Origin: an uncultured Gemmatimonadales bacterium
GTDB lineage: Bacteria; Gemmatimonadota; Gemmatimonadetes; Gemmatimonadales; GWC2-71-9
Length of the DNA stretch: 64,000 nt
NCBI GenBank assembly: GCA_963779755.1
Contig: CAVZZO010000003.1
Span: 192,001-256,000 of the forward strand
Reading direction: 5' to 3'
Part shown: in pieces, positions 6,473 through 53,292 of the stretch
Layout of the letters: the number at the start of each line of letters is the position of its first letter
Position numbering within the stretch: position 1 is the stretch's first letter
Notes under the pieces: model-generated
What the model was told of the DNA's origin: nothing
What the model saw: the letters and a program-made list of their open reading frames with translations, nothing else
Databases searched by the model: none
Program-made: the position numbers and the translations under genes

Positions 6473-6558
6473 CCCCCTCGACGCTCTTGACCCTCTCGAC
6501 CCTCTCGACCGGCCCTCGATGGTCGAGGAGGTCGAGAGGGTCGAGGGGGTCGGAGGGA
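6473..6558. repeat. Inverted pair of tandem 9-mer arrays, (CCCTCTCGA)x4 ... (TCGAGAGGG)x4
   Basis: ccccctcga cgctcttga ccctctcga ccctctcga, spacer, tcgaggagg tcgagaggg tcgaggggg tcggaggga; intergenic, just upstream of ribD. Confidence 0.9.
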
Positions 6559-6575
6559 ACACTCTCAGGCTCCGC

Positions 6576-7541
6576 TCACAACGAGAGGCGCAGGCCCACC
6601 CCGCCGAAGACCTTGCCCGCGGTCGTGTCGTAGTTGTCGAAATTGGTGGTCAGGTTCTGGTCCTTGCCCAGTTGATAGCCGATCTCCCCCACCAGCTTCA
6701 CCAGGGGCAAGTCCAGGCTCACATCCGCGAAGCCCATGTAGCGGGTGTTGCTGAGCACGACGTTCTCGGTATGCACCGCCCCCACCTGCGGCGGGTCCTG
6801 GAATTCGATCACGGCATCGCCGGTGTACTTGTCCAGCCCCAGGCCGGCGGCCAGGTTGAGCACCAGGATCTTCTTGCTCGCCACCGCCCGCAGGTTGGTG
6901 GCGTGCAGATCCACGGAGTAGGTGAAATTATCGCCCTGGGCGAGATCGCCGTAGCCGATCCGCGGAATGTCCCGGCGCATGATGCTCACCGAGACATCCG
7001 GCAGGATCATGGTGCCCCGCAACACGCCGATCCGGGCTCCGTAGCCCAGCCCCAGCGCCACATTCCCGATATGACGGGAGCCCGCGTCCACCGTGAGGTT
7101 GTCGATCTGCGTGGTGGGCAGCAGTTGGGCCGAGGCGAGCGCATCCAGAGACAGCAGCCCGCCGGCCAGACCTTTCCACAGGCCCAGCGCTCCTTCCACC
7201 AGCGGCACGGGCGCTACCATGTTCTCGCCCGACGGGACGCTGCCGGTGCCGTTGTAGTTGAGATCGGGCAGCTGCACCCGGGTGGCGTTCACCCGGGCGG
7301 TGAGCGAGAAGTGGCCCAGGCCCCCGAGCGTGCCGGCGGTCCCGATGACCGGGTTCCCGCCGCTCACCAGCAGGCCCACCACGGGATGGAACGCGCGGGT
7401 TCCATCCACCGCGGCGTTACAGATATTGGTGGTCTCTGTGGTACTGAGACCGACGCACTGCTGGCTGGGGCCGCCGGGAGCGGCGGACTGCGCGGCCGCC
7501 GGCGCGGCCAGCACCGCCAGAGCAAACAGAGAGTAGCGCAT
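6576..7541 (-). CDS. Hypothetical exported protein, probable outer-membrane beta-barrel
   Basis: Signal peptide (AAAQ), alternating amphipathic strands, C-terminal GVGLRLSL; GAGG SD. Confidence 0.7.
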   Translation of the reverse strand: MRYSLFALAVLAAPAAAQSAAPGGPSQQCVGLSTTETTNICNAAVDGTRAFHPVVGLLVSGGNPVIGTAGTLGGLGHFSLTARVNATRVQLPDLNYNGTGSVPSGENMVAPVPLVEGALGLWKGLAGGLLSLDALASAQLLPTTQIDNLTVDAGSRHIGNVALGLGYGARIGVLRGTMILPDVSVSIMRRDIPRIGYGDLAQGDNFTYSVDLHATNLRAVASKKILVLNLAAGLGLDKYTGDAVIEFQDPPQVGAVHTENVVLSNTRYMGFADVSLDLPLVKLVGEIGYQLGKDQNLTTNFDNYDTTAGKVFGGVGLRLSL

Positions 7542-7547
7542 GCGTCC

Positions 7548-8576
7548 TCACTCGCGGGCGAAGCGCACCGTCCCGCTGCCGGGACGCACCTCGCCCATGG
7601 TCCAGGTCGAGACTCCGGCTATGGCCGCGGCACGCTCTGCCTCGGCCACGTGCTCCGGAGGGAGGACGGCGATGAAGCCCACTCCGAGATTGAAGACTTC
7701 GCGCATCTCGGCCGTGGCGACCCCGCCCTCCTCCTGCAGAAAGCGGAAGAGCGGCGGCAACTCCCAGCGTGCCGGATCCACCACCGCATCGACGTCGGCG
7801 GGCAATATCCGGACCAGGTTGCCGGGTATCCCGCCGCCGGTGATGTGGGCCAGGCCATGGACCCGCGCCAGGATGGGGCTAACCGCCTGATAGTAGCTCT
7901 GATGCACCGCCAGGAGCGCATCGGCCACCGAACGGCCGGTGGTCCCCAACGGGCTCTCCAGCGCCAGCTTCGCCTGATCGAAAACAATGCGGCGTGCCAG
8001 GCTGTATCCATTGGTATGCAGGCCGGTCGAGCCATAGGCAAGAAGCACATCGCCGGGGCGGATTGCATCGCCGTGCAGGGCGGCATCTTCTTCCACCACA
8101 CCGACAATCGTTCCCGCCAGATCGTAGTGCCCCGGCTGGTAGAGGCCGGGCATCTGGGCGGTCTCCCCGCCGGCCAGATCCATGTCGTGCCGGCGGCAGG
8201 CGCGCGCGATCCCTTCGACCAGGCCCGCGATGGCGGTCACCTCGAGATCGGCACTGGCCAGATAGTCGAGAAACGCCAGCGGCCGGGCGCCGTGTACCAG
8301 AATATCGTTGACGCTGTGGTTGACCAGGTCTTCGCCCACCGTGTCGTAGCGGCCGGCGGCGGCCGCCACCAGCACCTTGGTACCGACGCCATCGGTGCTC
8401 AGCACCAGCACGGGCCGGCGCATGCCCTCCGGCAGCCGCACCATGCCGCCGAACCCGCCGATCCGTCCCAGGCTCCGGGGCGTGCGGGCGCTCCGCACCA
8501 GCTCGGCGATCCGCCGCTTGGCCAGATCGGCGCCGGCCAGATCCACACCCGCGGCGGCGTAGCGGGGGCCGGTCAC
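7548..8576 (-). CDS. purM: Phosphoribosylaminoimidazole (AIR) synthetase
   Basis: YAAAGVD, STDGVGTK, GGETAQMPG, GLHTNGYSL, AHITGGG. Confidence 0.98.
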   Translation of the reverse strand: MTGPRYAAAGVDLAGADLAKRRIAELVRSARTPRSLGRIGGFGGMVRLPEGMRRPVLVLSTDGVGTKVLVAAAAGRYDTVGEDLVNHSVNDILVHGARPLAFLDYLASADLEVTAIAGLVEGIARACRRHDMDLAGGETAQMPGLYQPGHYDLAGTIVGVVEEDAALHGDAIRPGDVLLAYGSTGLHTNGYSLARRIVFDQAKLALESPLGTTGRSVADALLAVHQSYYQAVSPILARVHGLAHITGGGIPGNLVRILPADVDAVVDPARWELPPLFRFLQEEGGVATAEMREVFNLGVGFIAVLPPEHVAEAERAAAIAGVSTWTMGEVRPGSGTVRFARE

Positions 8577-9493
8577 GGAATGGGCTCCGCCAGCGAGACG
8601 TGGGTGAGATCGCGGAACTGCTGCACCCGGGTTTCCACGTCGCTGCGCTCCACCGCGTCAAAACCGCGGATGCCGAACCGCGCCACCGCGTAGGAGCCCA
8701 TGGCCGCGCCGTATACCATGGCGCGCCGCAGGTTGTCGCTGGAGAGATCGTCGGTGCCCGCCAGCCAGCCCATGAAGCCGCCGGCGAAGGCGTCGCCCGC
8801 GCCGGTGGGGTCGAAGACCTCCTCCAGCGGGAACGCCGGTACGTAGAAGGTGCGGCCTGCCTCCAGCAGCAGCGCGCCGTATTCGCCCTGCTTGATCACC
8901 ACGCGGCTGGGCCCGTGCCGCAGGATCCAGCGTCCGGCGCGGTGAATATTCCAGTCCCCGGAGAGTTCGCGCGCTTCGCCGTCGTTCACCATGAGGATGT
9001 CCACCTGCTCCAGCAGCTTCAGCAGCTGGGGACGTTTGCTCTGGATCCAGTAGTTCATGGTGTCGCAGGCCACCAGGCGCGGCCGCGTGATCTGGTCCAG
9101 CACTCCGAGCTGCAGCTCCGGATCGATGTTGCCGAGAAAGACGTACTCCAGGGCACGATAGGTATCGGGCAGCCGGGGCTGGAAGTCGGCGAAGACGCCC
9201 AGCCGGGTCTCCAGCGTTTCCCGGCTCTGGAGGTCGTACGAGTATTTCCCTTTCCAGCGGAAGCTCTCGCCCTCGGCATGCTGCACACCGCTCCAGTCGA
9301 TGCCGCGGGGCGCGAGCCTTTCCAGCTCGCCCATGGGGTAGTCCTGCCCCACCACCCCGACCACCTGCACCGGGTGGAGCAGCGAGCCCGCCACGCTGAA
9401 GTACACGGCAGAGCCGCCCAGCGCATCGGCGGTCTCCCCGAAGGGGGTATAGACGGAATCGAGCGCGACACTCCCTACCACGAGCAGGCTCAT
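8573..9493 (-). CDS. PfkB/ribokinase-family carbohydrate kinase
   Basis: MSLLVVGSVALD start at 9493, LGGSA, DPTGAGDAFAGG. Confidence 0.93.
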   Translation of the reverse strand: MSLLVVGSVALDSVYTPFGETADALGGSAVYFSVAGSLLHPVQVVGVVGQDYPMGELERLAPRGIDWSGVQHAEGESFRWKGKYSYDLQSRETLETRLGVFADFQPRLPDTYRALEYVFLGNIDPELQLGVLDQITRPRLVACDTMNYWIQSKRPQLLKLLEQVDILMVNDGEARELSGDWNIHRAGRWILRHGPSRVVIKQGEYGALLLEAGRTFYVPAFPLEEVFDPTGAGDAFAGGFMGWLAGTDDLSSDNLRRAMVYGAAMGSYAVARFGIRGFDAVERSDVETRVQQFRDLTHVSLAEPIP

Positions 9494-9498
9494 GCGGA

Positions 9499-11136
9499 TT
9501 ACATCCGGTCTGGGGCGGTGATGCCGAGGAGGCGGAGGCCGTTGCCGACCACCTGCCGGGCGGCGCGGGCCAGGGTGAGCCGGGCGGCTTCCGTCGCGGG
9601 GGCCTCCCCCAGCACACGGCAGCGATGATACCAGGCGTGGGCCAGCCGGGCGAGCTCTTCCAGGTACCCGGTGATGCGGTGCGGCTCCCGGTCGCGGGCG
9701 GCGCCGGCGACGATCTCGGGGAACGTGAGGAGCTTCTTCAGCAGGTCGGTGTCTTCCGGCGCCGGCAGCGCGGCGAGATCGATGTCGGCCCCGGCCGATG
9801 CCGGCTCCCGGCCGGCGGTGCGGAAGATGCCGCTCATCCGGGCGTGCGCCATCTGCACGTAGAAGACGGGGTTTTCGTCGGTCTGGCTCTTGGCCAGATC
9901 GACATCGAACACCATCTGGGAGTCGCCGCGGCGCATGAGAAAGAAATAGCGTGCGGCATCCACGCCGACTTCCTCGAACAGGTCGCGCAGGGTGACGAAC
10001 TCGCCGGAGCGCTTGGACATCTTCACCTCTTCCCCGCCCCGGACCACTTTCACCAGCTGCACCACCTTCACATCGAAGAAGGCCGGCGGATAGCCCAGCG
10101 CCGCGAGGATGCTCCGCATCCGCGGGATATAGCCGTGATGATCCGCGCCCCACACGTCGATCACCCGGGCGAAGCCGCGATCGTGCTTGTCGACGTGATA
10201 CGCGATATCGGGCACGAAGTAGGTGTACGTCCCGTCGCTCTTGCGCAGGACCCGGTCCTTTTCGTCGCCGAAGTCGCTGGTGCGGAGCCAGAGCGCGCCC
10301 TCGCGCTCGTAGGTGAGCCCGCGCTGGGCCAGGAGCGCCAGGGTGGCCTCCACCCGCCCCGCCTGGTAGAGCGCGGCTTCGGAGGTGTACACCGCCATAT
10401 GCACGCCGAAGGTCCGGAGATCGTCGTCCTGCTCCGCCCGCATGGCCTCGACGCCCAGCACCCGGCAGCGCGCCAGGCCTTCGGGCTCGGGGAGGTCGGC
10501 GAAGCCCGCTCCCTCGCGCGCGAGAATCTGCCGGGCGGTCTCCCGGAGGTACTCTCCGTGATAGCCGCCCTCCGGCACCCCGCCGGGGCGACCGGCCGCT
10601 TCCTGCACCCGGGCCCAGAGGCTCTGGGCCAGCTTGTCGATCTGGACGCCGGCATCGTTGACGTAGAATTCGCGCGCCACCGCATGGCCGGTCCACTCGA
10701 GCAGGGCGGCGAGGGCATCCCCCAGCGCGGCCCCGCGCCCGTGGCCCACGTGCAGCGGCCCGGTGGGGTTGGCCGAGACAAATTCGACGTTGACCCGTTC
10801 GCCGGCGCCGCTGGCGCTTCGGCCATAGGCGTCACCCTGGTCCAGGATGCGGCGCAACTCGACCAGGAGCTGATCTTCCGCCAGCCAGAAGTTGATGAAC
10901 CCGGGGCCGGCGATTTCGGTCCGCGCCACGAACCCGGGCGGGAGCCGCAGCGATGCGACCACCCGCTCGGCCAGCTCGCGCGGGCGGGTCCGCAGCCGGC
11001 GCGCCAGGACCATGGCGAGATTAGTGGCCAGGTCGCCGTGCCCCGCGTCGCGGGGCCGCTCGAGGATGAACTCCTCGCCGTCGCCGCCCAGCTCCCGGGA
11101 AACCCGGGCCAGCTCGTCGCGCAGGCGCTGGTTCAC
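9499..11136 (-). CDS. argS: Arginine--tRNA ligase
   Basis: VEFVSANPTGPLHVGHGR, WGADHHGY, KMSKRSG, YVQMAHAR. Confidence 0.98.
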   Translation of the reverse strand: MNQRLRDELARVSRELGGDGEEFILERPRDAGHGDLATNLAMVLARRLRTRPRELAERVVASLRLPPGFVARTEIAGPGFINFWLAEDQLLVELRRILDQGDAYGRSASGAGERVNVEFVSANPTGPLHVGHGRGAALGDALAALLEWTGHAVAREFYVNDAGVQIDKLAQSLWARVQEAAGRPGGVPEGGYHGEYLRETARQILAREGAGFADLPEPEGLARCRVLGVEAMRAEQDDDLRTFGVHMAVYTSEAALYQAGRVEATLALLAQRGLTYEREGALWLRTSDFGDEKDRVLRKSDGTYTYFVPDIAYHVDKHDRGFARVIDVWGADHHGYIPRMRSILAALGYPPAFFDVKVVQLVKVVRGGEEVKMSKRSGEFVTLRDLFEEVGVDAARYFFLMRRGDSQMVFDVDLAKSQTDENPVFYVQMAHARMSGIFRTAGREPASAGADIDLAALPAPEDTDLLKKLLTFPEIVAGAARDREPHRITGYLEELARLAHAWYHRCRVLGEAPATEAARLTLARAARQVVGNGLRLLGITAPDRM

Positions 11137-11432
11137 TCGGCCTTCTTCGGCTGGGCGCCGCCGGCCGGCTTCTCCGGGGCTTTCTTCTCGTCGGCCTTGG
11201 CCGGCTTGTCGGCGGGCTTGTCTCCCTCGGCCGCCTTGCGCGGCCCTTTGCCGTCCTTACCGTAGTCGGTGATGTAAAACCCGCTGCCCTTGAACACGAG
11301 CCCGGCCCCGCCCGAAATCCGGCGCGTGGCCATCCGGCCGCACACCGGGCATTTCACCCGCGGGCGGTCGGTCATTTTCTGGAACTTCTCGAAGGTATGG
11401 CCCGTCGGGCACTCGTATTCGTAGGTCGGCAT
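11133..11432 (-). CDS. FmdB-family zinc-ribbon protein
   Basis: MPTYEYECPTGH...CPVCG...FKGSGFYITDY with a Lys/Ala/Pro-rich tail. Confidence 0.9.
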   Translation of the reverse strand: MPTYEYECPTGHTFEKFQKMTDRPRVKCPVCGRMATRRISGGAGLVFKGSGFYITDYGKDGKGPRKAAEGDKPADKPAKADEKKAPEKPAGGAQPKKAE

Positions 11433-11526
11433 GGACCCTCGAAGGTAAATGAAACCAGCCCAAAAACTTAAGCGGTGCACACGCCGGTGTTCAAGCACGC
11501 GGCGCCTGGCGCCCTCAGGGGGAAAG

Positions 11527-12249
11527 ATGCGACGAATACCCGTGCTGTTCCTGGTCGCTCTGCTGCTGCCCGCCGCCGCCCAGGCGCAATTGCGGGAAGT
11601 ACCCGATTCCACCGCGCTGCGGCCGGTACGGGCTACCGTCGGGGGATCGCTCCAGCTGGCCCTCCCGGAAGGCGAATTTGCCGACTTCGTGGGGAACGGC
11701 TTCGGACTGGGGGCGTTCTTCGCCATTCACCTGGGCCGCGGCGAGCGCGCGGCTCTGCGATTCGACGGCTCGTTCCTGCAGTACGGCCACGAGCGGGTGC
11801 AGCGGCCGCTCAGCCCCACCGTTCCGCAGGTCACGGTCGACGTCACCACCAGCAACAACATCTACTCGTTCTCCGCCGGCCCGGAGATCAACCTCGCGAC
11901 CGGTGCGCTCCGCCCCTACGTCCGCGGCGAGATCGGGGTGTCCTACTTCGCGACGACCTCGAGCGTGAAGGGCACCAGCAACAGCCAGGACTTCGCCAGT
12001 TCGACCAACTTCGACGATTTCACCTTCGTCTGGCTCGCGGGTGCGGGGTTGCGTATCCGGCTGGCCGGAGGACGCACACCGGTCTATCTCGACCTGGCGG
12101 GTGACTACATGCACAACGGGCGGGTCCAGTACCTGCGCGAGGGCAGCATCAAGGACAACGGCAACGGCACCATTACCATCACGCCGATCGAAAGCCAGAC
12201 CAACCTCTTCCTGCTGCGCGCCGGCGCCACCGTGGGCCTGCGCTGGTAG
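11527..12249 (+). CDS. Outer-membrane beta-barrel domain protein
   Basis: ATG at 11527, signal peptide (AQAQ), beta-strand pattern, C-terminal aromatic residue (VGLRW). Confidence 0.75.
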   Translation: MRRIPVLFLVALLLPAAAQAQLREVPDSTALRPVRATVGGSLQLALPEGEFADFVGNGFGLGAFFAIHLGRGERAALRFDGSFLQYGHERVQRPLSPTVPQVTVDVTTSNNIYSFSAGPEINLATGALRPYVRGEIGVSYFATTSSVKGTSNSQDFASSTNFDDFTFVWLAGAGLRIRLAGGRTPVYLDLAGDYMHNGRVQYLREGSIKDNGNGTITITPIESQTNLFLLRAGATVGLRW

Positions 12250-12252
12250 GAT

Positions 12253-13800
12253 TCAGCGGTAGGTCCCCCACACCGCGCGGAGGGCGTCGCTGATCTCGCC
12301 CAGGGTGGCGCGGACGCGCACGGCCTCGAGCACCAGGGGCATCAGGGCCCCACCATCCCGGGCCGCCTCGCCCAGGGATTGCAGCATTCGCTGCACCGCC
12401 GCCCCATCCCGCTGTTTCCGGGCCTGAGCCAGGCGCTCCCGCTGCCGCCGGGCCAGGGCGGTAAAATCGGGCAGGTCCATCTCGGGCGGGGGCGCGGGCT
12501 CGGTGAAGCGGTTCACGCCCACCACCACCGCGTCGCCCCGTTCCTGCGCCTGCTGCAGCTCCCAGGCGCTCCGCGCAATAGCCTCCTGGAAATAGCCCCG
12601 CTCCACTGCCGCCACGGCTCCACCCAGTGCGTCCACCTCGTCGATCAGGGCTCGCGCATCCTGCTCGATGCGATCGGTCAGTGCCTCGACGTAATAGCTT
12701 CCCGCCAGCGGATCGACCGTCCGGTTCATGCCGCTCTCGTACGCCAGAATCTGCTGAGTGCGCAGCGCCAGGGTGGCGGCCTCCTCGGAGGGCAGGGCGA
12801 GGGCCTCGTCATAGCCGTTGGTGTGCAGCGACTGGGTACCGCCCAGCACGGCGGAGAGCCCCTGCACGGCGACGCGCACGATGTTGTTGAGGGGTTGCTG
12901 CGCCTGCAGGGTGACGCCGCCGGTCTGCGTGTGGAACCGGAGACGGGCGGTGCGATCGTCGCCCTGGAAGCGCTCGCGCACCAGCCGGGCCCAGAGCCGG
13001 CGCGCCGCGCGAAACTTCGCTGTTTCTTCGAACAGGTCGTTGTGGGCGGCAAAGAAAAACGAGAGCCGCGGGCCGAATACCTCCAGCGCGATCCCGGCAT
13101 CGAGTCCGTGCCGCACGTAGGCCAGCGCGTTCGACAGCGTGAACCCTACTTCCTGAGCGGCGGTGGCCCCCGCCTCCCGCATGTGGTAGCCGCTGATGGA
13201 AATGGGGTTGAAGCTCATGCCCTCGTCCGCCACGAACCGCATGACCTCGGTGGTCAGGCGGAGGCTGGGCTGGGGCGGGTAAATGTAGGTGCCTCGGGCG
13301 ATGTACTCCTTGAGAATGTCGTTCTGCACCGTGCCCGTGAGCCGCCCGCGCTCCACGCCCTGTTCCTCGCCCACCACGACGTACATGGCCAGGAGGATGG
13401 CCGCCGTGGCGTTGATGGTCATGGACGTGGAGACCTCGCCCAGCGGTATCGCGCGGAACAGCACCGCCAGGTCGTCCACCGTGTCGATCGCGACCCCCAC
13501 CCGGCCCACTTCCCCTTCGGCCATGGGGTGGTCGGAGTCGTAGCCCATCTGGGTGGGGAGGTCGAACGCGGTGGAGAGGCCGGACTGGCCGGCTTCCAGC
13601 AGCCGCCGGAAGCGCTGGTTGGTTTCTTCGGCCGTCCCGAACCCGGCATACTGCCGCATGGTCCAGAGGCGGCTGGTGTACATGGTGGGATACACGCCGC
13701 GGGTATAGGGAAACTGCCCCGGCCGGGCCAGGTCCCGGGCCGGCTCACCGGCCCAGTCGCCGGGCCCGTACACCGTCTTGCGGTCGTCGTTTCCGGCCAT
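12253..13800 (-). CDS. Methylmalonyl-CoA mutase family, substrate-binding (large) subunit without B12-binding domain
   Basis: [47 protein letters not shown]; Tyr and Arg specificity residues fit methylmalonyl-CoA; no DxHxxG domain. Confidence 0.92.
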
Positions 13801-13804
13801 GGCC

Positions 13805-14866
13805 TCAGGCGCCCCGGTCGCTCACCCGCGCGAAGTGCGGATTCTCGCCCCGCTCATCCACTTGCCGCAGGATATCGCTGACGTATTCGACATCCTTCCT
13901 GGCACCCACCACCAGCGGGGTTCGCTGGTGCAGCTCGCCGGGCTGGATCTCCAGGATCCGCTCGTACCCGTTGGTGGCGGCGCCCCCCGCCTGCTCGGCC
14001 ACGAACGCCATGGGCGAGGCCTCATACAGCAGGCGCAGCTTGCCGTTGGGACTCTTGGTATCGGCCGGGTAGAGGAAGATCCCGCCGGAGATCAGGTTGC
14101 GGTGGAAGTCGGCCACCAGTGAGCCGATGTAGCGGCTGTTCTTCGCCTTGATGCGTTCGGGGATTTCGCCGTGGAAGCCGCGCACCGCCGCCTGCACCCC
14201 GCGGCCCCAGCGGGCGAAGTTGCTCTCGTTGATGCTGTAGTACTTCCCCACCTCCGGCGTCTGAATGAGGGGGTGCGAGAGCAGGAACTCGCCGATGGAA
14301 GGGTCCAGGGTGAAACCGTGCACGCCCTGCCCGGTGGTGTAGACCAGCATGGTGCTGGATCCGTACATCACGTAGCCCGCCGCCACCTGCCGCACGCCGG
14401 GCTGCAGCAGATCTTCCAGGCCGCCCCGCCCTTCCAGCGACACGCGGCGGTAGATGCTGAAAATCGTCCCCACCGCGGCGTTGACGTCGATGTTACTGGA
14501 GCCGTCGAGCGGATCGTACAGCACCACGTACTTGCCCGCCGGATAGTCCGGCGGAATGGGAATGGGGCCCTCGTCTTCTTCCGAGGCCATCATGCAGACG
14601 CGACCGGTGTGGTTGAACGTGTCCTTGATGGCCTGGTTGGCGTAGAGGTCGAGCTTTTGCTGCTCCTCGCCCTGGACGTTGACCGCCTCAGCCGACCCCA
14701 GGATGTTCACCAGGCCGGCGCGGCGGATGGCGGCGGAGATGAGCTTGGCCGCGAAGGCAATATCGTAGAGCAGGTTGGACAGCTCGCCCGTGGCCTCGGG
14801 GTACTGCCGCTCCTGCTCGACGATGAAGCGCTCGATCGTGGTCGTGGTGGACGAAGTCGAGTACAC
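13805..14866 (-). CDS. fbp: Fructose-1,6-bisphosphatase class I
   Basis: [40 protein letters not shown]. Confidence 0.97.
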
Positions 14867-14890
14867 AAGCGCTCCACAGGATGGGGTGGC

Positions 14891-17134
14891 TCAGGGCCGC
14901 ACGTCGAGCTCCAGGCTGCCGCGCCGGCCGTCGATGGTCATCGTCTGTCCGTCGGTCCGCACCGTCACCGGGCCGTCGCGATCGGTCCGCCAGACCGGAA
15001 TGTGCCGTGCCGCCAGCCGGCCCAGGGTGGCCGGAGCGGGATGCCCGTACCGGTTGGGACCCAGGCTGATCACCGCCGCGCGGGGCTGCAGCTCGTCCAG
15101 CCAAGCGTCGCCGGTCGCGGTGCGGGAGCCGTGGTGCCCCACCTTGAGCAGGTCCACCCTTCCCACCCGGCCGTGCAGCCACGCCTCCGCCCGTAATCCG
15201 GCGTCGCCCGCCAGCACGGCGGAGAAGGCGCCGAAGCGAACCAGCAGCACCACCGAGTCTTCGTTGAGGTCGTCGCCCCACTCGGCCCAGGTGGTATCGG
15301 GATGCAGCAGCTGGAACGAGACGCCGTCCAGGGCAAAGTGATCGCCCGCCCGGCCCGGATGCCAGGGGATCCCTTCGGCCGTCACCTGGCGCAGAAACTC
15401 CAGGTACAGCGGATCGCCGGTGATATCGGCCGATTCCACGACCACGTCGGCGGGGATCCGGTCCAGCACGGCCGGCACACCCCCCAGGTGATCGGCATGG
15501 GGATGGGAAACCACCACCACCGAGAGGCGGCGCACCCCCTGCCGGACCAGGAACGGCGCGACGATCGACCGCCCGGCATCGGTGTCGTCGGTGCGCGGCC
15601 CCGCATCCACCAGCACCCAGTGGCCGGCGGGGGTCCGCAGCGCCGCCGCATCCCCCTGGCCGACCCGCAGAAAATGTAACGTCAGGCCGGAACCGCCGTC
15701 AGGCCGCGCCGGGATCAGGGCGAGAACGACGCCGGCCCAGGCCGCGGCCGCCGACAGCCGGACCCAGTGCTGCAGCACCGCCCGCCCGGGCAGGCCGCGG
15801 CCCACGCTCCAGAGCGCAAAGGCCAGCAGCAGGAGCCAGGGCACGGCCGCTCCCGGGCCGGTACCCTGCACCACATGGCCCCCGGGAAGCCGGGAGCCGG
15901 CATACGCCAGCGCCTCCAGCAGGTTGAGCAGGAGTCCCGATCCCGCGGCCAGCGCGCGGGCCGGCGGACCCACGACTGGCGCCATGAGCAGACTGGCGAA
16001 CACGCCCGGCACGGCCACCGCGCTCAGGGGAATCGCCACCAGGTTGAGCAGGATCCCGATGGGCGCCACCAGACCGAACGCGCCCGCGGTGATCGGCGCC
16101 GTGGCCAGGGTTGCGCCGGTCGAGACCGCCAGCACCCGCCCCAGCGTGGACCGGGGCAGCGCCTGCTCGCTCCACCGGCCGAAATGAGTGGTTCCCCAGA
16201 CGGCCGCCGCCGACAGCCAGGTGCCGGCCGAAAACACGGCGTACGGATCCACCAGAAGCACACCCAGGCAGGCGATCCCCAGAAGCGCTCCCGGCCGCAC
16301 GGCGCGCTGGCGCCAGCGGCAGAAGACCAGCAGGGCGATGAAACAGGCCGCGCGGGTGGCCGGCGCGGGCCAGCCGAGAAAGGCTGCGTAGCCGATCCCG
16401 GCGAGGGCCGCGGCCAACCGGGCGCGGGCCGGCGCCAGCCCTAGCGCCCGGCCCAGCAGCAACAACCAGCCCGCCAGGATCCCGACATGCAGGCCGGAGA
16501 TACAGAGCAGGTGCGCCAGGCCGGCGGCCGCCCAGGTGTTCCGTAGCTCGCGGTCGAGTCCCTCCCGCTGATTGAGAATGACTGCACCCACCAGCCCGCT
16601 GCGGCTGCCGTAGAGGGTGCGCGCCTCCCGCGCCAGCCGGGCACGCCAGCGGGCCACGGGCGCATGGCCTTCCCCCACCAGGCTGCCGCGCTGCACGCTG
16701 AGAATGCCGCTGCGACGACCCTGGTGCTCCAGGCCGGGAATCCATCGCCCCCGGATGCGCCAGTCCTGCCCCGCGGAGGCCGGCAGTCCGCGCGGCCACC
16801 GGACGCTGATGGCCGACCGGCAAGCCGCCGCGACGGGCCGCGCCTCCAGGGTGGCGCCGGCCGGGCCGGCGTCATCCAGCAGGCGCAGGCGCAGGGCAAT
16901 GCTTCCCGCCGGGAGGCGGGCGGCGCACGATTGCCGTTCGGCATGCCGGGCGAGACTGCCCGCCAGCAGTCCGGCCAGGACCACGGCACCGGCGAGGAAC
17001 GGAATGCGGCAGCGCCATCCCAGCACCAGCGCCAGAGCGGGAAACAGCAGCAGGGGGAGGGAAAAACGCGAAAGGCCGGTCACCAGACCGGCCCCATAGC
17101 AGAGCAGCAGCAGCAATCCTCCGGGAGGCGTCAC
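14891..17134 (-). CDS. comEC: DNA internalization competence protein ComEC/Rec2
   Basis: GLAHLLCISGLH competence domain plus metallo-beta-lactamase domain (VGQGDA, SHPHADHLGG, KVGHHGS). Confidence 0.95.
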   Translation of the reverse strand: MTPPGGLLLLLCYGAGLVTGLSRFSLPLLLFPALALVLGWRCRIPFLAGAVVLAGLLAGSLARHAERQSCAARLPAGSIALRLRLLDDAGPAGATLEARPVAAACRSAISVRWPRGLPASAGQDWRIRGRWIPGLEHQGRRSGILSVQRGSLVGEGHAPVARWRARLAREARTLYGSRSGLVGAVILNQREGLDRELRNTWAAAGLAHLLCISGLHVGILAGWLLLLGRALGLAPARARLAAALAGIGYAAFLGWPAPATRAACFIALLVFCRWRQRAVRPGALLGIACLGVLLVDPYAVFSAGTWLSAAAVWGTTHFGRWSEQALPRSTLGRVLAVSTGATLATAPITAGAFGLVAPIGILLNLVAIPLSAVAVPGVFASLLMAPVVGPPARALAAGSGLLLNLLEALAYAGSRLPGGHVVQGTGPGAAVPWLLLLAFALWSVGRGLPGRAVLQHWVRLSAAAAWAGVVLALIPARPDGGSGLTLHFLRVGQGDAAALRTPAGHWVLVDAGPRTDDTDAGRSIVAPFLVRQGVRRLSVVVVSHPHADHLGGVPAVLDRIPADVVVESADITGDPLYLEFLRQVTAEGIPWHPGRAGDHFALDGVSFQLLHPDTTWAEWGDDLNEDSVVLLVRFGAFSAVLAGDAGLRAEAWLHGRVGRVDLLKVGHHGSRTATGDAWLDELQPRAAVISLGPNRYGHPAPATLGRLAARHIPVWRTDRDGPVTVRTDGQTMTIDGRRGSLELDVRP

Positions 17135-17147
17135 GCCTCCCTCCGGC

Positions 17148-17429
17148 TCAGCTGCCGGAGGCCTCCCGGCCGCAGCGCGGCGCCAGCGAGATCTTCCGGA
17201 TGCCTTCCATGATGTTGACCTCGATCAGGGCGCGGGTCTGGTCGCGGTCGAGGTTGATCTCGGTGAGTACCGTCCCCTCGCGGCTCGCCACGTAGCGGGC
17301 GGGAATCCGGTTGAGGGCGTATACCAGGACATCGCCGCGGCAGATTTCGCAGCCGCAGAAATCGGGGAACTTGGCCCGCAGGCCTTCGTAGGCCGATAGC
17401 ACGCGCTCTTCGACCAGGTTCTGAATCAT
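17148..17429 (-). CDS. comFB: ComFB-family (late competence development) protein
   Basis: NLVEE...CGCEICRGDVLVYALNRIPARY matches the ComFB pattern. Confidence 0.85.
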   Translation of the reverse strand: MIQNLVEERVLSAYEGLRAKFPDFCGCEICRGDVLVYALNRIPARYVASREGTVLTEINLDRDQTRALIEVNIMEGIRKISLAPRCGREASGS

Positions 17430-18736: not shown

Positions 18737-18748
18737 GGGAGGGAAGAT

Positions 18749-18820
18749 GGCGGTAAGGGCGGTGTGGGCGGTAGGGGCGGTAAATCACTGACCGCCCTGC
18801 CGCGGTACCGCCTTACCGGC
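18749..18820. repeat. Inverted pair of tandem arrays, (GGCGGTANN)x4 facing (NNACCGCC)-type 8-mers
   Basis: ggcggtaag ggcggtgtg ggcggtagg ggcggtaaa | tgaccgcc ctgccgcg gtaccgcc ttaccggc; the right arm lies in the last codons of tsdA. Confidence 0.8.
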
Positions 18821-19672
18821 CTCCTGAGCCGCCTTCGTGGGGTACGCCACGTCCGGCGGCGGGTCGCCGTTGGGCCAGTCGAGCTCCTTGCCCGGGAGAT
18901 CGGGCCGGGGCTGGAGCGTCACGTACCGGGCGACGTCGAACGCCTGCTGGTCGGTCAGGCTGCCGGGCTGGTCGAACGGCATGTTGTGCCGGATGAACGC
19001 CGCCGCCGTGCGGACCCGCGCCATGCCCGCCCCGATGTTGAAGCTCTCCGGCCCCCAGAGCGGCGGCGCGACGGTAGTTCCCTGGCCCCCGGGCCCATGA
19101 CAGCGCGCGCAGACGCTGTCGAAAATGGCATGTCCCACCGCGCTGTCGCCGGTGGTGACGCTCACCTTCGCCAGTCCCTGCCCCGGCAGCTCGGCGCCGA
19201 CGGGGATGCCCCGGGAAAGCCAGGCCAGGTACGCGACGATGTCGCGCATGTCATTTCCATCCGCCTCCAGCGGTGTCCCGTTCATGCTCCGCCGGAAGCA
19301 GCCGTTGACCCGGTCTTCGATGGTGATGACCCGCGCCGCCCGGCTGCGATACTGGGGGAACTGGCCGTACACCCCGACCCAGGGGATGGCCCCGGGCTTG
19401 CGGCCGTCGTCGGGATGGCAGCTGATGCAGGCCAGCCTGTTTCCCACATGCTGCGGCAGGCTGTCGCGCGTGTTGCGCAGGAGCGCCAGCCCGCGCCGGA
19501 CGGAGTGTCCCAGCGGATCGTCCGGAATGGCGCTGTCGGAGGGGAGGCGGCGATAGGCCGCGAGGGAATCGACGGTCGAATCAGGTGCGGCGGTCCGGGA
19601 CGCCCGCGGCGACTCGCAGCCTGCGACCGCGGCGCCCAGCAGAAAACAGGCAAGAGGAAGGTGAGACTTCAT
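18785..19672 (-). CDS. tsdA: Diheme cytochrome c, thiosulfate dehydrogenase/tetrathionate reductase TsdA-like lipoprotein
   Basis: Lipobox VAGC, CISCH and CARCH heme motifs, RVNGCFRRSMNG (Cys ligand), PPLWG, SFNIGAGM, FIRHNMP. Confidence 0.85.
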   Translation of the reverse strand: MKSHLPLACFLLGAAVAGCESPRASRTAAPDSTVDSLAAYRRLPSDSAIPDDPLGHSVRRGLALLRNTRDSLPQHVGNRLACISCHPDDGRKPGAIPWVGVYGQFPQYRSRAARVITIEDRVNGCFRRSMNGTPLEADGNDMRDIVAYLAWLSRGIPVGAELPGQGLAKVSVTTGDSAVGHAIFDSVCARCHGPGGQGTTVAPPLWGPESFNIGAGMARVRTAAAFIRHNMPFDQPGSLTDQQAFDVARYVTLQPRPDLPGKELDWPNGDPPPDVAYPTKAAQEAGKAVPRQGGQ

Positions 19673-19757
19673 CAACTGAATCCTGGCGGACGGGAATTCC
19701 AAGCTATGAATGGCGGACGGGATGGACAAGGCGGCTCTGCCCACTCTGCCCATTCTT

Positions 19758-43606: not shown

Positions 43607-43679
43607 GGTAAGTCGTAGGAGGTAAGGCGTGACGCGCGATCGGCGGTCACACCTTACGCCTCACGCCTCACCTCTTACC
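43607..43679. repeat. Inverted pair of tandem 7-mer arrays, same family as 25812-25876
   Basis: ggtaagt cgtagga ggtaagg cgtgacg | tcacacc ttacgcc tcacgcc tcacctc ttacc. Confidence 0.85.
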
Positions 43680-43684
43680 GCCGC

Positions 43685-45490
43685 TCATCGCAGTCCCAGC
43701 CTTCGCCGCGCCACCCACTCCCCACAGAAAGCCGCCACGCAGACCCCGAACAGCCATAACCGGCTCCGCAGCGGTTCGCCCCCATTCACCGGAGAGAGGG
43801 TGGCGGGCTCGGACTGAACCGTCCGATCGTGCGGCAGATACTCCTCCGACCAGCTGTCTACCGCCACCGTACCATTCCCCCCGCCCTCCAGGCGGTAATT
43901 GTAGATGCCCGCCGGCAACCAGGCCTCGCCCCGGCCGGCGCCGTCGAAGTGGAGCGTGTCCTGCCGTACGCCACCGGGTCCGTCCCAGGCGACCGGGAGT
44001 GCTGTCGCCGGACCTGGACCATTCCACTGGAACACCACCGGACGGCGGGCCGCCACCACCGGCCGCACCGGCTGGGCCTGTCCGGCCACGGTATCCCGTC
44101 CTCCCAGAAGCCAGGTGACTGCGGCCGACACGAGCGAGCGGTATCCCTGCTCGCTGGCGCCGCCGCGAAAGTCCCAGCGATAGAAGCCGTCGGCCAGCAA
44201 CAGGATCTCCCGGCGGCCGCCGCGGTCGGCGCCGAGCAGCACGGGCCGCTGGGCGCCGCGGCGTCCCTCCTGGGCCGAGAGTCCGATCCACTGCTCGTCC
44301 CTCGGCGTCACCGGAATGATCTGGCTGAGCGGAGGAAAGGAATCGACCGGGAGCCCGGCCAGGGCACCCGCCAGGGGCGAGCCCGGCACCGACACATACC
44401 AGTCGCCCGGGACTGCGCTCCCCTGCCCGGCCTGATCGCGCCACTCCAGGACGCCGCGCGCGCGGGAATTCCGGGCCAGCGCCGTCTCTCCCTTCAGCAC
44501 CAGCAGGTCCGCGCCGCGGACGGCGCGCTCTACCTCGGCGCGTGAGACCGGGGAAAGATCGCGCATGGAGCGCCAGCGATCGGGCTGAAGCTGGACGTAC
44601 CCGCGCACCGGCAGCCGGGCCACGTCTTCCAGCGCCCGGTAGAGAAAGCGGCTGTCCCAGTCGGGGGGGTTGGCCACCAGCACCACGCCCGGGGTGGCCG
44701 TCACGTTCAGACGGAAGAGCCGGGCATCGTCGCGGGGCTCCCGATCGCCGGCCTGGAGGGCGACCTCGAGCATGTGCGTTCCGGCGTGAAGTGCCGAAGC
44801 CGGCACCGTGAGCGACACCTCGCTGCTGCTTCGGGGCTCCAGGCTGACGTTCCGCCGGGTCAGCACCCGTTCACCTTCACGCACCACCAGGGGCACCTCG
44901 CGCGACGCGCTGTCGCCGTAGGCGCGGAGCCGCACCGTCAATCGCGCGGAGTCGCCCGCGACGATGCGCCCCGGCCCGTCCACCAGCAGCACGGCGAGAT
45001 CGGGGCCGGAGGGCCGAGGCAGCACCCGGATAGTTGCCCGGTGCAGGAGATCGGGCGGCAGATCGGCGGCATCCTGGATTTCGCCGTCGGTCACCACCAC
45101 CACCGGGCGCTCGCCGGCCGCGGCCGAGCGCAGGGCCGCCACCAGGCGTGACGTCCCGAAGAGGGGTGCGCTGTCGGCGGGCGCCGCCGGGTCGCCGAAC
45201 CGCCGGACTTCGCCCAACCGGCTAGCGGTGTCGCGCGCGGCCCGCCAATGAGCCGAGTCGGCGGTCATGCTGAGGCTGGCATCCAGGAGCACCAGGGGAC
45301 GCCCGCCGGCCCGCCGCGCACCGCAGCTCAAATCGGCCAGGAGCAGCCCCAGGGTGAACCAGGCCACGACCCGCAGAACGAAGGGGATACCGAGCCGGCC
45401 CAGGCGGGCGCCTTCCGGCGCAGATTCCAGCCGATAGTAGGTGAAACCGCTCAGGGCCAGAGCGCCCAGCAGGAGCAACGCCGTGATCAT
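43685..45490 (-). CDS. Membrane-anchored vWA-like protein with Ig-like domain
   Basis: Two N-terminal TM segments, MIDAS-like LLDASLSM and VVVTDG, C-terminal TM ending EWVARRRLGL. Confidence 0.75.
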   Translation of the reverse strand: MITALLLLGALALSGFTYYRLESAPEGARLGRLGIPFVLRVVAWFTLGLLLADLSCGARRAGGRPLVLLDASLSMTADSAHWRAARDTASRLGEVRRFGDPAAPADSAPLFGTSRLVAALRSAAAGERPVVVVTDGEIQDAADLPPDLLHRATIRVLPRPSGPDLAVLLVDGPGRIVAGDSARLTVRLRAYGDSASREVPLVVREGERVLTRRNVSLEPRSSSEVSLTVPASALHAGTHMLEVALQAGDREPRDDARLFRLNVTATPGVVLVANPPDWDSRFLYRALEDVARLPVRGYVQLQPDRWRSMRDLSPVSRAEVERAVRGADLLVLKGETALARNSRARGVLEWRDQAGQGSAVPGDWYVSVPGSPLAGALAGLPVDSFPPLSQIIPVTPRDEQWIGLSAQEGRRGAQRPVLLGADRGGRREILLLADGFYRWDFRGGASEQGYRSLVSAAVTWLLGGRDTVAGQAQPVRPVVAARRPVVFQWNGPGPATALPVAWDGPGGVRQDTLHFDGAGRGEAWLPAGIYNYRLEGGGNGTVAVDSWSEEYLPHDRTVQSEPATLSPVNGGEPLRSRLWLFGVCVAAFCGEWVARRRLGLR

Positions 45491-52093: not shown

Positions 52094-52104
52094 CTGGGTG
52101 GGCT

Positions 52105-52132
52105 AATTTAGCACCACTTTTGAAGTTGCGAA
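52105..52132 (-). promoter_or_regulatory. Putative internal sigma70-type promoter for murC-ftsQAZ
   Basis: TTCGCA-16nt-TAAATT with extended -10 TG, in an AT-rich spacer 11 nt before the murC ATG. Confidence 0.4.
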
Positions 52133-52144
52133 AGACGGTGAGAG

Positions 52145-53260
52145 TCAGCGCAGCGTCAAAAGATGCGACACTATTTGCCGGGCCGCGTCGGGGTGACCCC
52201 GCGAGCGCGCTCGCTCTGCCATGGCCTGGCGGCCGCCGGGATCGGCCAGCAGCCGGCCCAGCTCGGTGCCCAGCCGCACCGGCGAAAGCTCGGACTGCGG
52301 CAGTAGCACCGCGGCGCCGACCTCGGCCAGGGCACGCGCGTTGTGCGTCTGGTGGTCGGCAGCGGCGCTGGGCAGCGGAATGAGGATGCCCGGAAGACCC
52401 CAGGCGCACAGCTCGGCCAGCGTCATGGCGCCCGCCCGTCCCACGATGAGGTCCGCCACGGCGTAAGCGTCGGCGATAGGATCGAGAAATTCACACACCT
52501 GCACCGCCGGCGGCCGGTGGTAGCGGGCGAACAGTGGATAGGTGGCGCGGCCCGCCGCCCAGAGCAGCACGACGCCGTCGCCTCCCCCGGCATCCAGCCA
52601 GCCCGCCACGGCCTGGTTGATCGCCTGGCTACCCTGGCTGCCACCGGTCACCACCACTACCGGGGCGCCCGGTGGAATGCCGTAGCCTGCCAGCGCGGTG
52701 GTCCGGCGGGCCGGATCGGGAGGGACAATCGGGTTCCCGGTGTCCAGCACCTCAGTCGCGCGGCCCGGCCGGATACGGGTGCGCGCCTCCGGCAGCCCCA
52801 GATAGACCTGGCGCACCCGGCCGGACAGCCGGCGGGTGACGATCCCGGGATACGCGTTCTGCTCCTGAATGGCGCTGGGAATACCGCGCCGGGCAGCCAG
52901 CCAGACCACCGGACCGGCGGCGTAGCCACCCGTCCCGGCCACCACCAAGGGACGTTCCTGCGCCAGAACGCGGCGTGCAGCCAGGAGGAGCCGGGGCCCT
53001 GCCCTCAGCCAGCGCAGGTTCTTCCACCATTGCCGGCGGTAGATCGGCTCGGCGGGCAGGAGGTGATAGCGGAAATCGCGGGTGGGCAGAATTCGCGACT
53101 CAACGCCCCGCTCCGCCCCGACCAGCACCGGCTCGATTTCGGGATGCGAGCGGCGAATCTCCTCGGCGATCGCGAGCGCGGGCATGAGGTGGCCGCCGGT
53201 CCCGCCTCCGGCGATGAGCACGGTCGGCCGGCGTGGGGGCGCGGCGCCATCGCGTTCCAT
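52145..53260 (-). CDS. murG: Undecaprenyl-PP-MurNAc-pentapeptide GlcNAc transferase
   Basis: GGGTGGH, EQNAYPG, GGSQG, GRAGA, HQTHNA. Confidence 0.97.
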   Translation of the reverse strand: MERDGAAPPRRPTVLIAGGGTGGHLMPALAIAEEIRRSHPEIEPVLVGAERGVESRILPTRDFRYHLLPAEPIYRRQWWKNLRWLRAGPRLLLAARRVLAQERPLVVAGTGGYAAGPVVWLAARRGIPSAIQEQNAYPGIVTRRLSGRVRQVYLGLPEARTRIRPGRATEVLDTGNPIVPPDPARRTTALAGYGIPPGAPVVVVTGGSQGSQAINQAVAGWLDAGGGDGVVLLWAAGRATYPLFARYHRPPAVQVCEFLDPIADAYAVADLIVGRAGAMTLAELCAWGLPGILIPLPSAAADHQTHNARALAEVGAAVLLPQSELSPVRLGTELGRLLADPGGRQAMAERARSRGHPDAARQIVSHLLTLR

Positions 53261-53292
53261 CCTACCGTCCTGCCGTCCTGCCGTCCTGCCGT
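53261..53292. repeat. Tandem 8-mer array (CCTGCCGT)x4, single arm
   Basis: cctaccgt cctgccgt cctgccgt cctgccgt; covers the last ftsW codons and its stop. Confidence 0.85.

Follow-up and report, generated by a model that had tools for sequence, protein, structure and literature searches.

The repeat elements of this window, by which we mean the whole 64,000-nucleotide stretch analysed from an uncultured Gemmatimonadales genome, belong to a population of several hundred elements spread over the genome, of which they form a local sample. The explanation that we favor, and that we consider about evenly poised between right and wrong, is that they belong to a superfamily of hairpin cassettes, as members without a gene and without autonomy that were later remodelled by slippage. 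Direct reading and Tandem Repeats Finder agree with a sequence-only reading of this stretch that four full hairpins and one single array are real. The degenerate candidate placed by the same reading at about 19712-19756 survives in part: an array does occupy 19735-19756, inside a 28-nt spacer (19730-19757), and its unit family counts 8 arrays, but it has only 2.4 copies and no partner, and the surrounding region (19700-19760) shows no RNA fold (z -0.8). The features are, along the window:

6473-6510: element 1, 5' arm, 4.2 copies of the C-rich 9-mer CCCTCTCGA (direct reading and Tandem Repeats Finder)
6511-6520: element 1, central spacer
6521-6558: element 1, 3' arm, 4.0 copies of GGTCGAGGG, of the C-first TCGAG 9-mer family
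18749-18783: element 2, 5' arm, 3.9 copies of GGCGGTAAG (Tandem Repeats Finder)
18784-18790: element 2, loop tcactga
18791-18820: element 2, complementary 3' arm, degenerate
19735-19756: candidate, single array without inverted partner, 2.4 copies of CTCTGCCCA
25812-25836: element 3, 5' arm, 3.6 copies of CGTAAGG/CGTGAGG
25837-25846: element 3, spacer
25847-25876: element 3, complementary 3' arm
43607-43633: element 4, 5' arm, degenerate G-rich heptamers GGTAAGT, CGTAGGA, GGTAAGG and CGTGAC
43634-43645: element 4, spacer
43646-43679: element 4, 3' arm, 3.6 copies of TCACGCC with flanking units
53260-53293: single octamer array without partner, 4.2 copies of TCCTGCCG

Elements 1 and 2 are thus built of 9-mers, elements 3 and 4 of heptamers and the single arm of 8-mers, and the spacers measure 7-12 nt. 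Folded as RNA, the four full elements reach -42.8 to -63.5 kcal/mol (z -4.3 to -9.4), an energy equalled in none of 200 shuffles; the frequency of the MFE structure in the folding ensemble is low, and the single arm does not fold (z +0.6). A long complementary stem, as found in cassettes of the 23S rRNA IVS type, is present in all four elements and also in the gene-bearing cassettes described below.

The gene positions that we give come from a crude codon-model gene caller made for this analysis, and no annotation was used. They agree with the earlier claims that the elements lie at housekeeping genes (ribD, miaB, mazG/asnS, ftsY and murG/ftsW) and that several supply or overlap stop codons, which three of the five do. 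Element 1 lies between the stop of a minus-strand gene (6576-7541) and the ribD start at 6465. The miaB start codon (18736) lies 13 nt from the 5' arm of element 2, while on the other side of this element a c-type-cytochrome-like gene (18785-19729) has its minus-strand stop codon (18785-18787) within the loop and its final ~10 residues encoded by the 3' arm. In element 3 the outermost units serve both neighbors: the first unit of the 5' arm supplies the TAA stop of mazG (25814-25816), and the last unit of the 3' arm supplies the asnS stop (25872-25874, minus strand). Element 4 is upstream of ftsY (start 43544, minus strand), and its 3' arm ends 5 nt short of the stop of gene 43685-45490. The octamer array at the ftsW-murG junction encodes the FtsW tail, about the ten last codons, together with the stop at 53262-53264.

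The same arrangement recurs throughout the genome. Pairs of an array and a reverse-complement array no more than 80 nt apart number 117, against none in a dinucleotide-preserving shuffle of the whole genome in 300-nt blocks, and period-7 arrays with at least three copies number 581 against 52; both frequencies are above chance. Non-redundant arrays of period 6-12 total 1356. Although 85.5% of the genome is coding, only 77 period-7 arrays are coding and 47 mixed, whereas 436 fall within the intergenic 14.5%, as do 166 arrays of period 8 and 119 of period 9. Gene ends are the preferred neighbors: 33% of 844 stop-facing array edges lie within 10 nt of the gene end, compared to 11% of 744 start-facing edges, and the distance from a stop codon to its array is most often -2 to +5 nt. 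Array density per kb is 0.70 in divergent spacers, 1.56 in codirectional and 1.35 in convergent ones.

At least 20 unit families, with units of 7-11 nt, are present side by side in this genome, GGGAATC/AGGAATC being one abundant family among them. The elements had been described as a single family whose architecture, and not sequence, is conserved. The architecture is indeed common to different units, but each of the window's unit families is a dispersed repeat, found at 8 to 74 loci, and sequence is therefore conserved within families; moreover, at least three kinds had been merged, namely G-first hairpins of 7-, 8-, 9- and 11-mers, the C-first TCGAG 9-mers, and families consisting mostly of single arrays. 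To the last belongs the octamer family of 53260-53293, only 8% of whose arrays are paired. Polarity is near-absolute in the arms of period 7 (G-first 197 vs 3), period 8 (36 vs 2) and period 11 (22 vs 0), and it is reversed in the TCGAG 9-mer family (C-first 17 and G-first 3, of 32 loci), which has a semi-conserved short loop across its copies and no match in a search of 30 relatives. The inner phase does not vary (...GAGCGG/loop/CCGCTC... and ...ATCAGG/loop/CCTGAT...), paired heptamer arms most often count 4-4.5 units, unit and phase recur at tens of unrelated loci, and the order of variant units within an arm is common to several loci. The 149 loops of dispersed heptamer copies are unrelated: what similarity there is comes from local tandem clusters and a few matches of 11-28 nt, and whole-element copy-paste is therefore not the simple answer. 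About 30 flanks read by eye showed no evident target-site duplication.

In relatives from other genera, the orthologous junctions are mostly tight, empty spacers, and some carry a hairpin of a different unit. The ribD junction measures 3-22 nt in four of the five relatives that keep the synteny. At mazG/asnS, six of nine relatives have a tight junction and one has its own GGTGASA hairpin; among 20 conserved junctions in metagenome loci, where the best MazG relative has 71% identity, 11 are no longer than 37 nt and three contain other-unit hairpins. The ftsW/murG junction of G003 has a TGCGGAW hairpin and the ftsY junction of G020 a GTGATGA hairpin. This distribution of empty and differently filled junctions indicates that the elements are lineage-specific gains. 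They do not behave as conserved terminators, in line with the expectation of the earlier reading: between 6300 and 26200 there are 16 terminator-like sites, not one of which overlaps element 1, 2 or 3 or the candidate, and a T run 3' of the stem is absent at all four full elements.

The proposed link of such arrays to four-helix-bundle and GxxExxY genes holds in this genome, outside the window. PF05635 (four-helix-bundle) has no match in the window, all nine genome matches lying elsewhere, and seven of the eight PF05635 genes are bracketed by a G-rich array and, on the opposite side, the complement of that array. The arrangement of these arms is independent of gene strand, and the unit differs for each gene. 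The unit type of element 2 is that of the arms around one of these genes, hb5 (C1:2133167-2133535), and among hb5-clade loci in other Gemmatimonadales 62 of 80 have complementary arms, G-first in all 62. At least two of the 12 PF13366 (GxxExxY) matches likewise lie between inverted arrays of similar 9-mers, one gene bracketed by CGCGAAGGG/TTCGCGTC arrays and another by CGCAGATTA/AATCTGCGT arrays. The TCGAG 9-mer, GGCGTRA and GGCAGGAC families of the window have no cargo-bearing copy in this genome. GGCGTRA is abundant in G018, where a PF05635 gene is flanked by a GGCGTTA array and a degenerate complement. No transposase was found between the arms of 36 wide pairs in the genome, and its three Y1_Tnp (PF01797) genes have no arrays within 350 nt. 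A homologue of the cargo protein, XCC0516 of X. campestris, has a solved structure (PDB 2GSC).

Cassettes and dispersed arrays match in their units in a genome-specific manner. When the unit of a resident cassette was searched as three copies with at most two mismatches, reciprocally in five other genomes, it was found at 66, 78, 177, 36 and 11 positions in its own genome, compared to 0-2 positions in 19 of the 20 comparisons with the other four genomes and 26 in the remaining one. The cassette units of G000 recur at 7-67 further loci, with 0 and 1 for two strict variants. This matching could also come from cargo genes landing in pre-existing hairpins. Against the reading of the elements as gene-less cassettes, families that lack a resident cassette equal those that have one in both abundance and "freshness" (Tandem Repeats Finder match 88% vs 88%, p 0.41; arrays of at least eight copies 14.4% vs 14.7%). 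Nor was any movement of an element seen: the sequencing runs found span none of them, and no RNA run contains this sequence.

If the elements are gene-less cassettes, then their two arms, each made up of some four tandem 7-9-nt units and set in fixed orientation on either side of a short spacer that is mostly unique, would act as terminal inverted repeats built of reiterated recognition sites. The arms would be what is recognised and copied, by a factor that may be encoded by the cassette or by the host, and in the gene-bearing form they bracket a small gene for a four-helix-bundle (PF05635) or GxxExxY PD-(D/E)XK-like protein. Copies were gained in this lineage immediately behind stop codons, where relatives have tight junctions, and replication slippage would then have altered the number of units, at times in a single arm only. 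Where transcribed, the elements would form stems of ~25-35 bp without the U-tract of an intrinsic terminator, and these stems would, by analogy with 23S rRNA intervening sequences, be RNase III substrates. More tentatively, and with doubt outweighing belief, the periodic hairpins might be non-autonomous partners in a widespread but so far undescribed kind of mobile or "domesticated" bacterial cassette, whose autonomous form encodes a small Avd-like four-helix-bundle or GxxExxY PD-(D/E)XK-like protein that recognises its own arm units, as RAYT recognises REP. To our knowledge neither cargo protein is a known transposase, and we know of no catalytic activity of the four-helix-bundle protein; an arm-recognising cargo protein would, if true, provide the first concrete function for the PF05635 family.

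Some of these observations would also be expected if only the gene-bearing cassette moves and the hairpins are old insertions, from which a palindrome-centred deletion removed the central gene and left the arms with a short spacer. The gene-less arms have the polarity and phase of cassette arms, their spacers vary among copies as differing deletion end points would yield, and a degenerating PF05635 fragment, which scores 22 bits and contains one in-frame TGA, adjoins a AGGCGGGA array at C1:1473999-1474148. However, when the 149 loops were compared to the nine cassette interiors, the sole matches were 11-27 nt long and mostly due to repeat units or chance; the suggestion of the sequence-only reading that the elements are empty sites of a cassette is not supported if it means deletion remnants, since the loops hold no recognisable remnant of the resident cassette interiors. 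The 8 intact cassettes, set against ~250-300 paired elements, would also require insertion and loss to be very frequent, a single intermediate form occurs among the 36 wide pairs, and the semi-conserved loop of the TCGAG family points to the gene-less form itself being copied. We therefore regard in-situ decay as unlikely. Quite unlikely, too, is an origin as simple-sequence repeats that grew by local slippage, acquired partners through palindrome-extending template switching and were selected as RNA stem-loops for 3'-end stability, insulation or termination. The stems are very stable (mean -70 kcal/mol, n=254 elements genome-wide), long perfect arrays are confined to one arm (e.g., 14.6 and 16.7 copies, 99-100% match), and both the position next to stop codons and the lower density in divergent spacers would fit; but unit, phase and variant-unit order recur at unrelated loci, and local template switching gives no reason to expect the near-absolute polarity, given that single arrays are found on either strand (250 purine-rich, 224 pyrimidine-rich). 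A role as RNA is further opposed by the stems' lack of a U-tract and of overlap with terminator-like sites, by the tight junctions that suffice in most relatives, and by 153 codirectional elements, in which neither folding nor G-U pairs show an asymmetry between sense and antisense (sense transcript more stable in 68, antisense in 85, p 0.11). That both strands fold alike suggests a constraint at the DNA rather than the RNA level.

Two further explanations concern the G-rich strand itself. The 5' arm is G-rich in nearly all 7-, 8- and 11-mer families, several units contain GGG (GGGACAA, GGGAAAC, GGGAATC), about four units per arm are the minimum for an intramolecular quadruplex, and the accessible part of Rehm 2015 (PMC4692102) reports that such units form quadruplexes; the G-rich arm might thus be the active part of a G-quadruplex or other non-B regulatory repeat, modulated by the complementary arm. 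We consider this very unlikely, since many units have only GG or broken G runs (CGGTAAG, CGTGAGG, TAGTCGT), the 9-mer family of the window is C-first, the duplex is favored by the perfectly complementary arm only a few bases distant, and the cargo genes are left unexplained. The elements could also be scars at which a telomerase-like or reverse-transcriptase activity extended the two 3' ends of a break with G-rich units before these were joined. This would predict the observed geometry of array, filler and reverse-complement array, with the G strand running 5' to 3' inward on both strands, and would fit the unique "filler" spacers, the fixed inner phase and the slightly greater uniformity of inner units (50 vs 27 arms, p 0.03). 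Yet the inner-outer gradient is weak, one abundant family has the opposite polarity, the shared order of variant units fits whole-arm copying better than unit-by-unit synthesis, and a reverse transcriptase search (RVT_1, PF00078) found no match in this genome, which is 96.97% complete. We regard such scars as hardly credible, and templated synthesis, one of the processes proposed in the earlier reading, is not supported as the work of a reverse transcriptase.

Several known systems resemble the gene-less hairpins in part. Like MITEs, they are short, non-coding and dispersed, with terminal inverted repeats and longer gene-bearing relatives; unlike MITEs, they have no transposase-bearing parent that we could find in this genome, and the internal sequence of the heptamer families is not conserved between copies. 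REPINs are conceived of as doublets. With REP/REPIN, as far as described in the accessible text of Nunvar et al. 2010 (PMC2817692), the elements share hundreds of short intergenic palindromes after stops in several families per genome, and with REPIN-RAYT a single-copy gene flanked by inverted repeats of its own family and the genome-specificity of the families. However, a REP is a fixed palindrome of ~35 nt whereas the arms here are internally periodic, and RAYT is a Y1 transposase whereas the flanked gene here encodes a four-helix-bundle or GxxExxY protein. The layout of this genome's cassettes is that of the ORF-bearing 23S rRNA IVS of Coxiella burnetii (Warrier et al. 2016, PMC4990558), the available portion of which does not describe a periodic make-up of the arms; the window elements differ in having no ORF and in lying between protein genes instead of in rRNA. 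The single-array families, e.g., the octamer of 53260-53293, resemble the Beggiatoaceae TAACTGA and cyanobacterial heptamer repeats, which the accessible part of MacGregor 2015 (PMC4679880) presents as abundant intergenic arrays of unknown origin; the TAACTGA unit is AT-rich, unlike those of the window families.

The closest published case is that of the convergent GGGAATC repeats of Xanthomonas (Rehm 2015, PMC4692102). In the part of that paper available to us, GGGAATC in Xanthomonas campestris/citri and GGGGA(C/T)T in Nostoc are tandem, G-rich and ~90% intergenic repeats near the 3' end of the upstream ORF, Xanthomonas has 70-75 convergent plus/minus pairs capable of forming stem-loops, one unit per genome is read as a quadruplex element, and PF05635 or PF13366 genes are not mentioned. 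Overwhelmingly intergenic G-rich heptamers and convergent pairs near the 3' end of the upstream ORF are common to both systems; the present genome differs in its at least 20 unit families, one with reversed polarity, and in arms that bracket PF05635 and PF13366 genes. Should the tentative proposal of a widespread cassette class be true, then the ORF-bearing IVS of 23S rRNA and the heptamer repeats of Xanthomonas and Nostoc would be special cases of one cassette system.

The sequence-only reading had described four full hairpins and one single arm in the window, each hairpin made of about four tandem units of 7-9 nt, a spacer and a complementary array. All six listed places were read directly, and the architecture is as claimed (gene positions come from a custom codon-model gene caller and gene names from NCBIfam).

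Periodic arrays in the window
6473-6558: element 1, CCCTCTCGA x4.2, 10-nt spacer, GGTCGAGGG x4.0; between an unnamed gene and ribD
18749-18820: element 2, GGCGGTAAG x3.9, spacer tcactga, degenerate complement; between miaB and a cytochrome-like gene
25812-25876: element 3, CGTRAGG x3.6, spacer, complement; between the convergent mazG and asnS
43607-43679: element 4, degenerate G-rich heptamers, spacer, TCACGCC x3.6; upstream of ftsY
53260-53293: lone array, TCCTGCCG x4.2 with no partner; between ftsW and murG
19735-19756: candidate, CTCTGCCCA x2.4, a single array (Tandem Repeats Finder)

At the degenerate candidate proposed for about 19712-19756 the short array is present and the full element is absent. 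Folded as RNA, elements 1-4 reach -42.8 to -63.5 kcal/mol (z -4.3 to -9.4; 0 of 200 shuffles as stable), and the single arrays at 53260-53293 and 19735-19756 give no fold. As had been proposed, the arrays supply or overlap stop codons, in three of five cases in the window, and the C-terminal residues of FtsW are encoded by one. The window's sole Rfam match at gathering thresholds is a tRNA gene (62920-62994, minus strand). In the stretch 18785-22100, the cytochrome-like gene beside miaB is without synteny in relatives, whose homologues lie on other contigs; compared with the family, this stretch is thus rearranged or inserted.

That these places belong to a wider family is borne out across the genome (4.23 Mb, 68.5% GC), where Tandem Repeats Finder output and a pairing rule give 117 pairs of an array and its reverse complement within 80 nt, versus none in a dinucleotide-preserving shuffle. 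There are 1356 non-redundant arrays, and those in intergenic DNA, 14.5% of the genome, include 436 with period 7, 166 with period 8 and 119 with period 9. A k-mer test assigns the intergenic arrays as 155 5' arms, 176 3' arms, 13 both and 474 single. Merging yields about 315 candidate paired elements (median arms 38 and 37 nt, median spacer 16 nt), 254 of which are intergenic and span at most 320 nt.

The polarity of the arms is nearly absolute: G-first arms outnumber C-first arms by 197 to 3 at period 7, 36 to 2 at period 8 and 22 to 0 at period 11. It is identical on both strands and thus independent of gene direction. The TCGAG 9-mer family, which includes element 1, is reversed (17 C-first, 3 G-first, 11 single and 1 unclear among 32 loci) and has a semi-conserved short loop. 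The phase of the inner arm boundary is fixed, paired heptamer arms most often count 4-4.5 units, and some arms carry long perfect unit runs on one side only. The paired fraction varies by family, the lowest being 8% in the octamer family of 53260-53293 and the highest 90% in one TCGAG sub-family. Spacers of dispersed same-family copies are unrelated; among 149, only four local tandem clusters show likeness, apart from a few short matches. Two otherwise unrelated hairpins, at C1:401014 and C3:1390650 on contigs of this genome, have in their spacers a common 28-nt GC-rich palindromic segment (89% identity, opposite strands). At C1:9256-9666 the arrays are nested, GGCGGTAC outside and GGCGGGAA inside, plus complements, with no convincing ORF between them. 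Divergence of inner versus outer units gives a weak signal for polar growth: the outer ones diverge more in 50 arms and less in 27 (p 0.03), and consensus distance is equal (30 versus 29).

Genes of the four-helix-bundle family PF05635 (23S rRNA intervening-sequence proteins), named in the sequence-only reading as neighbors of such arrays in other genomes, do carry them here. All eight such genes of the genome, and a single fragment, lie outside the window. Seven of the genes are flanked by a G-rich array to the left and by the complementary array to the right, irrespective of gene strand, each with a different unit (CGYTAGT, AGGAATC, GGCGGKAC, GGCGGTAAG, GGCGGCAR, GGGAAAC and GGTGAGC), and the eighth has a left 11/12-mer array only. 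The unit GGCGGTAAG is also that of element 2. Of the GxxExxY genes (PF13366, PD-(D/E)XK-like), one lies between CGCGAAGGG and TTCGCGTC arrays and another between CGCAGATTA and AATCTGCGT arrays; further copies have 9-mer arrays alongside. At C3:1489000-1506500, at least nine full or partial PF13366 copies are interleaved with CCGATTACA 9-mer arrays. For the clade of one PF05635 gene, hb5 (C1:2133167-2133535), the alignment uses the four closest sequences. Among 80 loci of this clade in other Gemmatimonadales, arrays flank both sides in 66; 62 of these are complementary, all 62 G-first, and 50 contain GGCGG.

Units of these gene-bearing cassettes recur away from the genes. In five other genomes (the set includes the unpublished G035), three copies of a resident cassette unit, with at most two mismatches, match 66, 78, 177, 36 and 11 positions in the unit's own genome, on many contigs and often as plus/minus pairs about 100 nt apart, versus 0-2 positions in the other four genomes, except for the G033 unit with 26 in G031. 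The CAGACGGG unit, being a rotation of itself when read backwards, voids the built-in control. Cassette units of the genome studied here have 7-67 further loci; only two strict variants fall below this, at 0 and 1. G018, a genome of another genus, shares the GGCGTRA family of the window, which in this genome is an orphan, lacking such a gene; in G018 a PF05635 gene lies between AGGCGTT x8.9 and a degenerate complement. Since a cassette gene and its arms are inherited together, a correlation of protein and unit cannot alone separate recognition from common descent.

The orthologous junctions were compared with relatives of other genera (55-63% protein identity), so that gain and loss are read across genera. 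Absent alleles, which the sequence-only reading had proposed to look for, occur, as do hairpins of other units. The ribD neighbor is kept in 5 of 19 relatives (including the unpublished G014), with a spacer of 3-22 nt in four and an ordinary hairpin in one. The mazG/asnS junction is tight in six of nine; in G007 it holds a separate GGTGASA hairpin, in G005 a short remnant and in G009 an extra gene. In metagenomes, where the best MazG relative has 71% identity, 20 loci conserve this junction: the gap is at most 37 nt in 11, three have full hairpins of other units (CAGCGGGT, CGCAAGGG and ACGGGAGG, all G-first) and one a partial array. In two of these spacers, L139 and L140, the common motif GTCACCCTGARCG.AG.GAAGGGG is a second, nested small repeat, lying in the loop of the CAGCGGGT hairpin in L140 and forming its own inverted pair in L139. 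At ftsY, a GTGATGA hairpin is present in G020 and a G-rich array with an extra gene in G005, and G007 and G012 are tight; at ftsW/murG, the full hairpin of G003 is built of TGCGGAW units, G007 has a GGTGAGA array and six others have none. Relatives have a different neighbor at miaB, and arrays are absent in four of four. The elements are thus gains specific to a lineage, at permissive junctions, with units that differ from one lineage to another. The TCGAG pattern has 133 positions in this genome and none in the 30 relatives searched; CGTGAGG x3 has 72, with 83 in G018, only 1-2 in each of four others and none in 25. In a G018 locus (L216, contig C161), CGCCTCA x9.9 (2149-2217, 69 nt) and CTCACGC x3.4 (2587-2610, 24 nt) lie within an fpg/mutM-like reading frame; both have lengths that are multiples of three and are apparently tolerated in frame as peptide repeats.

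We read the window elements as gene-less, putative non-autonomous members of a hairpin-cassette superfamily, a reading that we rate as the most likely, with about even chances. The periodic arms would act as terminal inverted repeats of the cassette, and slippage would remodel them after insertion. Several results count against the simple story. Three of the window's unit families have no cargo-bearing copy in this genome; fresher arrays were not found where a cassette is resident, orphan families being equally abundant and equally uniform; Y1 transposases are present in the genome and not linked to arrays; to our knowledge, neither cargo protein is a known transposase; and neither the cross-genus comparison nor the metagenome contigs show any movement. 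Spacers longer than about 12 nt, tried as remnants of cassette interiors, gave no matches with resident cassettes; that the elements are in-situ relics of full cassettes is rather unlikely. The suggested link to a reverse transcriptase is not supported, a search of this genome having found none, and scars of templated end-addition are hardly credible.

Functional stem-loops born by slippage would be consistent with the stable folds and with the position of the arrays, but we consider them unlikely. Gaps between stop codon and array are commonest at -2 to +5 nt; of 844 stop-facing edges, 33% are within 10 nt, versus 11% of 744 start-facing ones. Per kb, codirectional spacers hold 1.56 arrays, convergent ones 1.35 and divergent ones 0.70. 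On direct reading, the stems of elements 1-4 are not followed by a T run, and the 16 terminator-like sites in 6300-26200 all fall outside the elements. Strand-specific RNA selection (G-U versus A-C) left no sign: of 153 codirectional elements, 68 fold more stably as the sense transcript and 85 as the antisense (p 0.11), and G-U pairs favor sense in 63 and antisense in 71. Quadruplex elements, to which G-first arms may point and complementary arms do not, are very doubtful. Under the superfamily reading, the element RNA may be cleaved in RNase III fashion, by analogy with rRNA intervening sequences (Coxiella burnetii; PMC4990558). In the AGGACTG family (35 arrays), whose unit contains the Shine-Dalgarno-like GAGGA, single arrays place the G strand on the sense side in 19 of the 24 codirectional spacers; other families checked have smaller or opposite imbalances with small counts. 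Among sequencing runs, a single soil-metagenome study contains 11% of the sampled words, and no RNA run was among those listed. Its short contigs include few near-identical stretches (at least 8 for X1), which are inside genes and do not bridge an element.

By our own count, arrays sit at roughly a fifth of gene junctions in this soil bacterium, and so influence how operons are spaced, where stop codons fall and how proteins end. In practice such repeats break assemblies and mislead gene callers at 3' ends, and they could be fast strain markers. The literature searched, which excluded subscription journals, held no report of gene-less periodic hairpins tied to PF05635 or PF13366; the many co-existing unit families, the family-specific polarity, the cargo link and the matching of cassette and dispersed-array units are likewise absent from it. 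PF05635 is mentioned in a DGR review, and MacGregor 2015 (PMC4679880) describes intergenic TAACTGA direct repeats of Beggiatoaceae. Should the cargo-gene link be causal, one testable system would cover three things that now lack an explanation: the heptamer repeats between genes of Xanthomonas and cyanobacteria, rRNA inserts that carry genes, and the "23S rRNA intervening-sequence protein" family, which is very large. The closest published description is that of convergent GGGAATC heptamer pairs in Xanthomonas (Rehm 2015, PMC4692102), and the system, if real, would resemble REP sequences and their RAYT genes.
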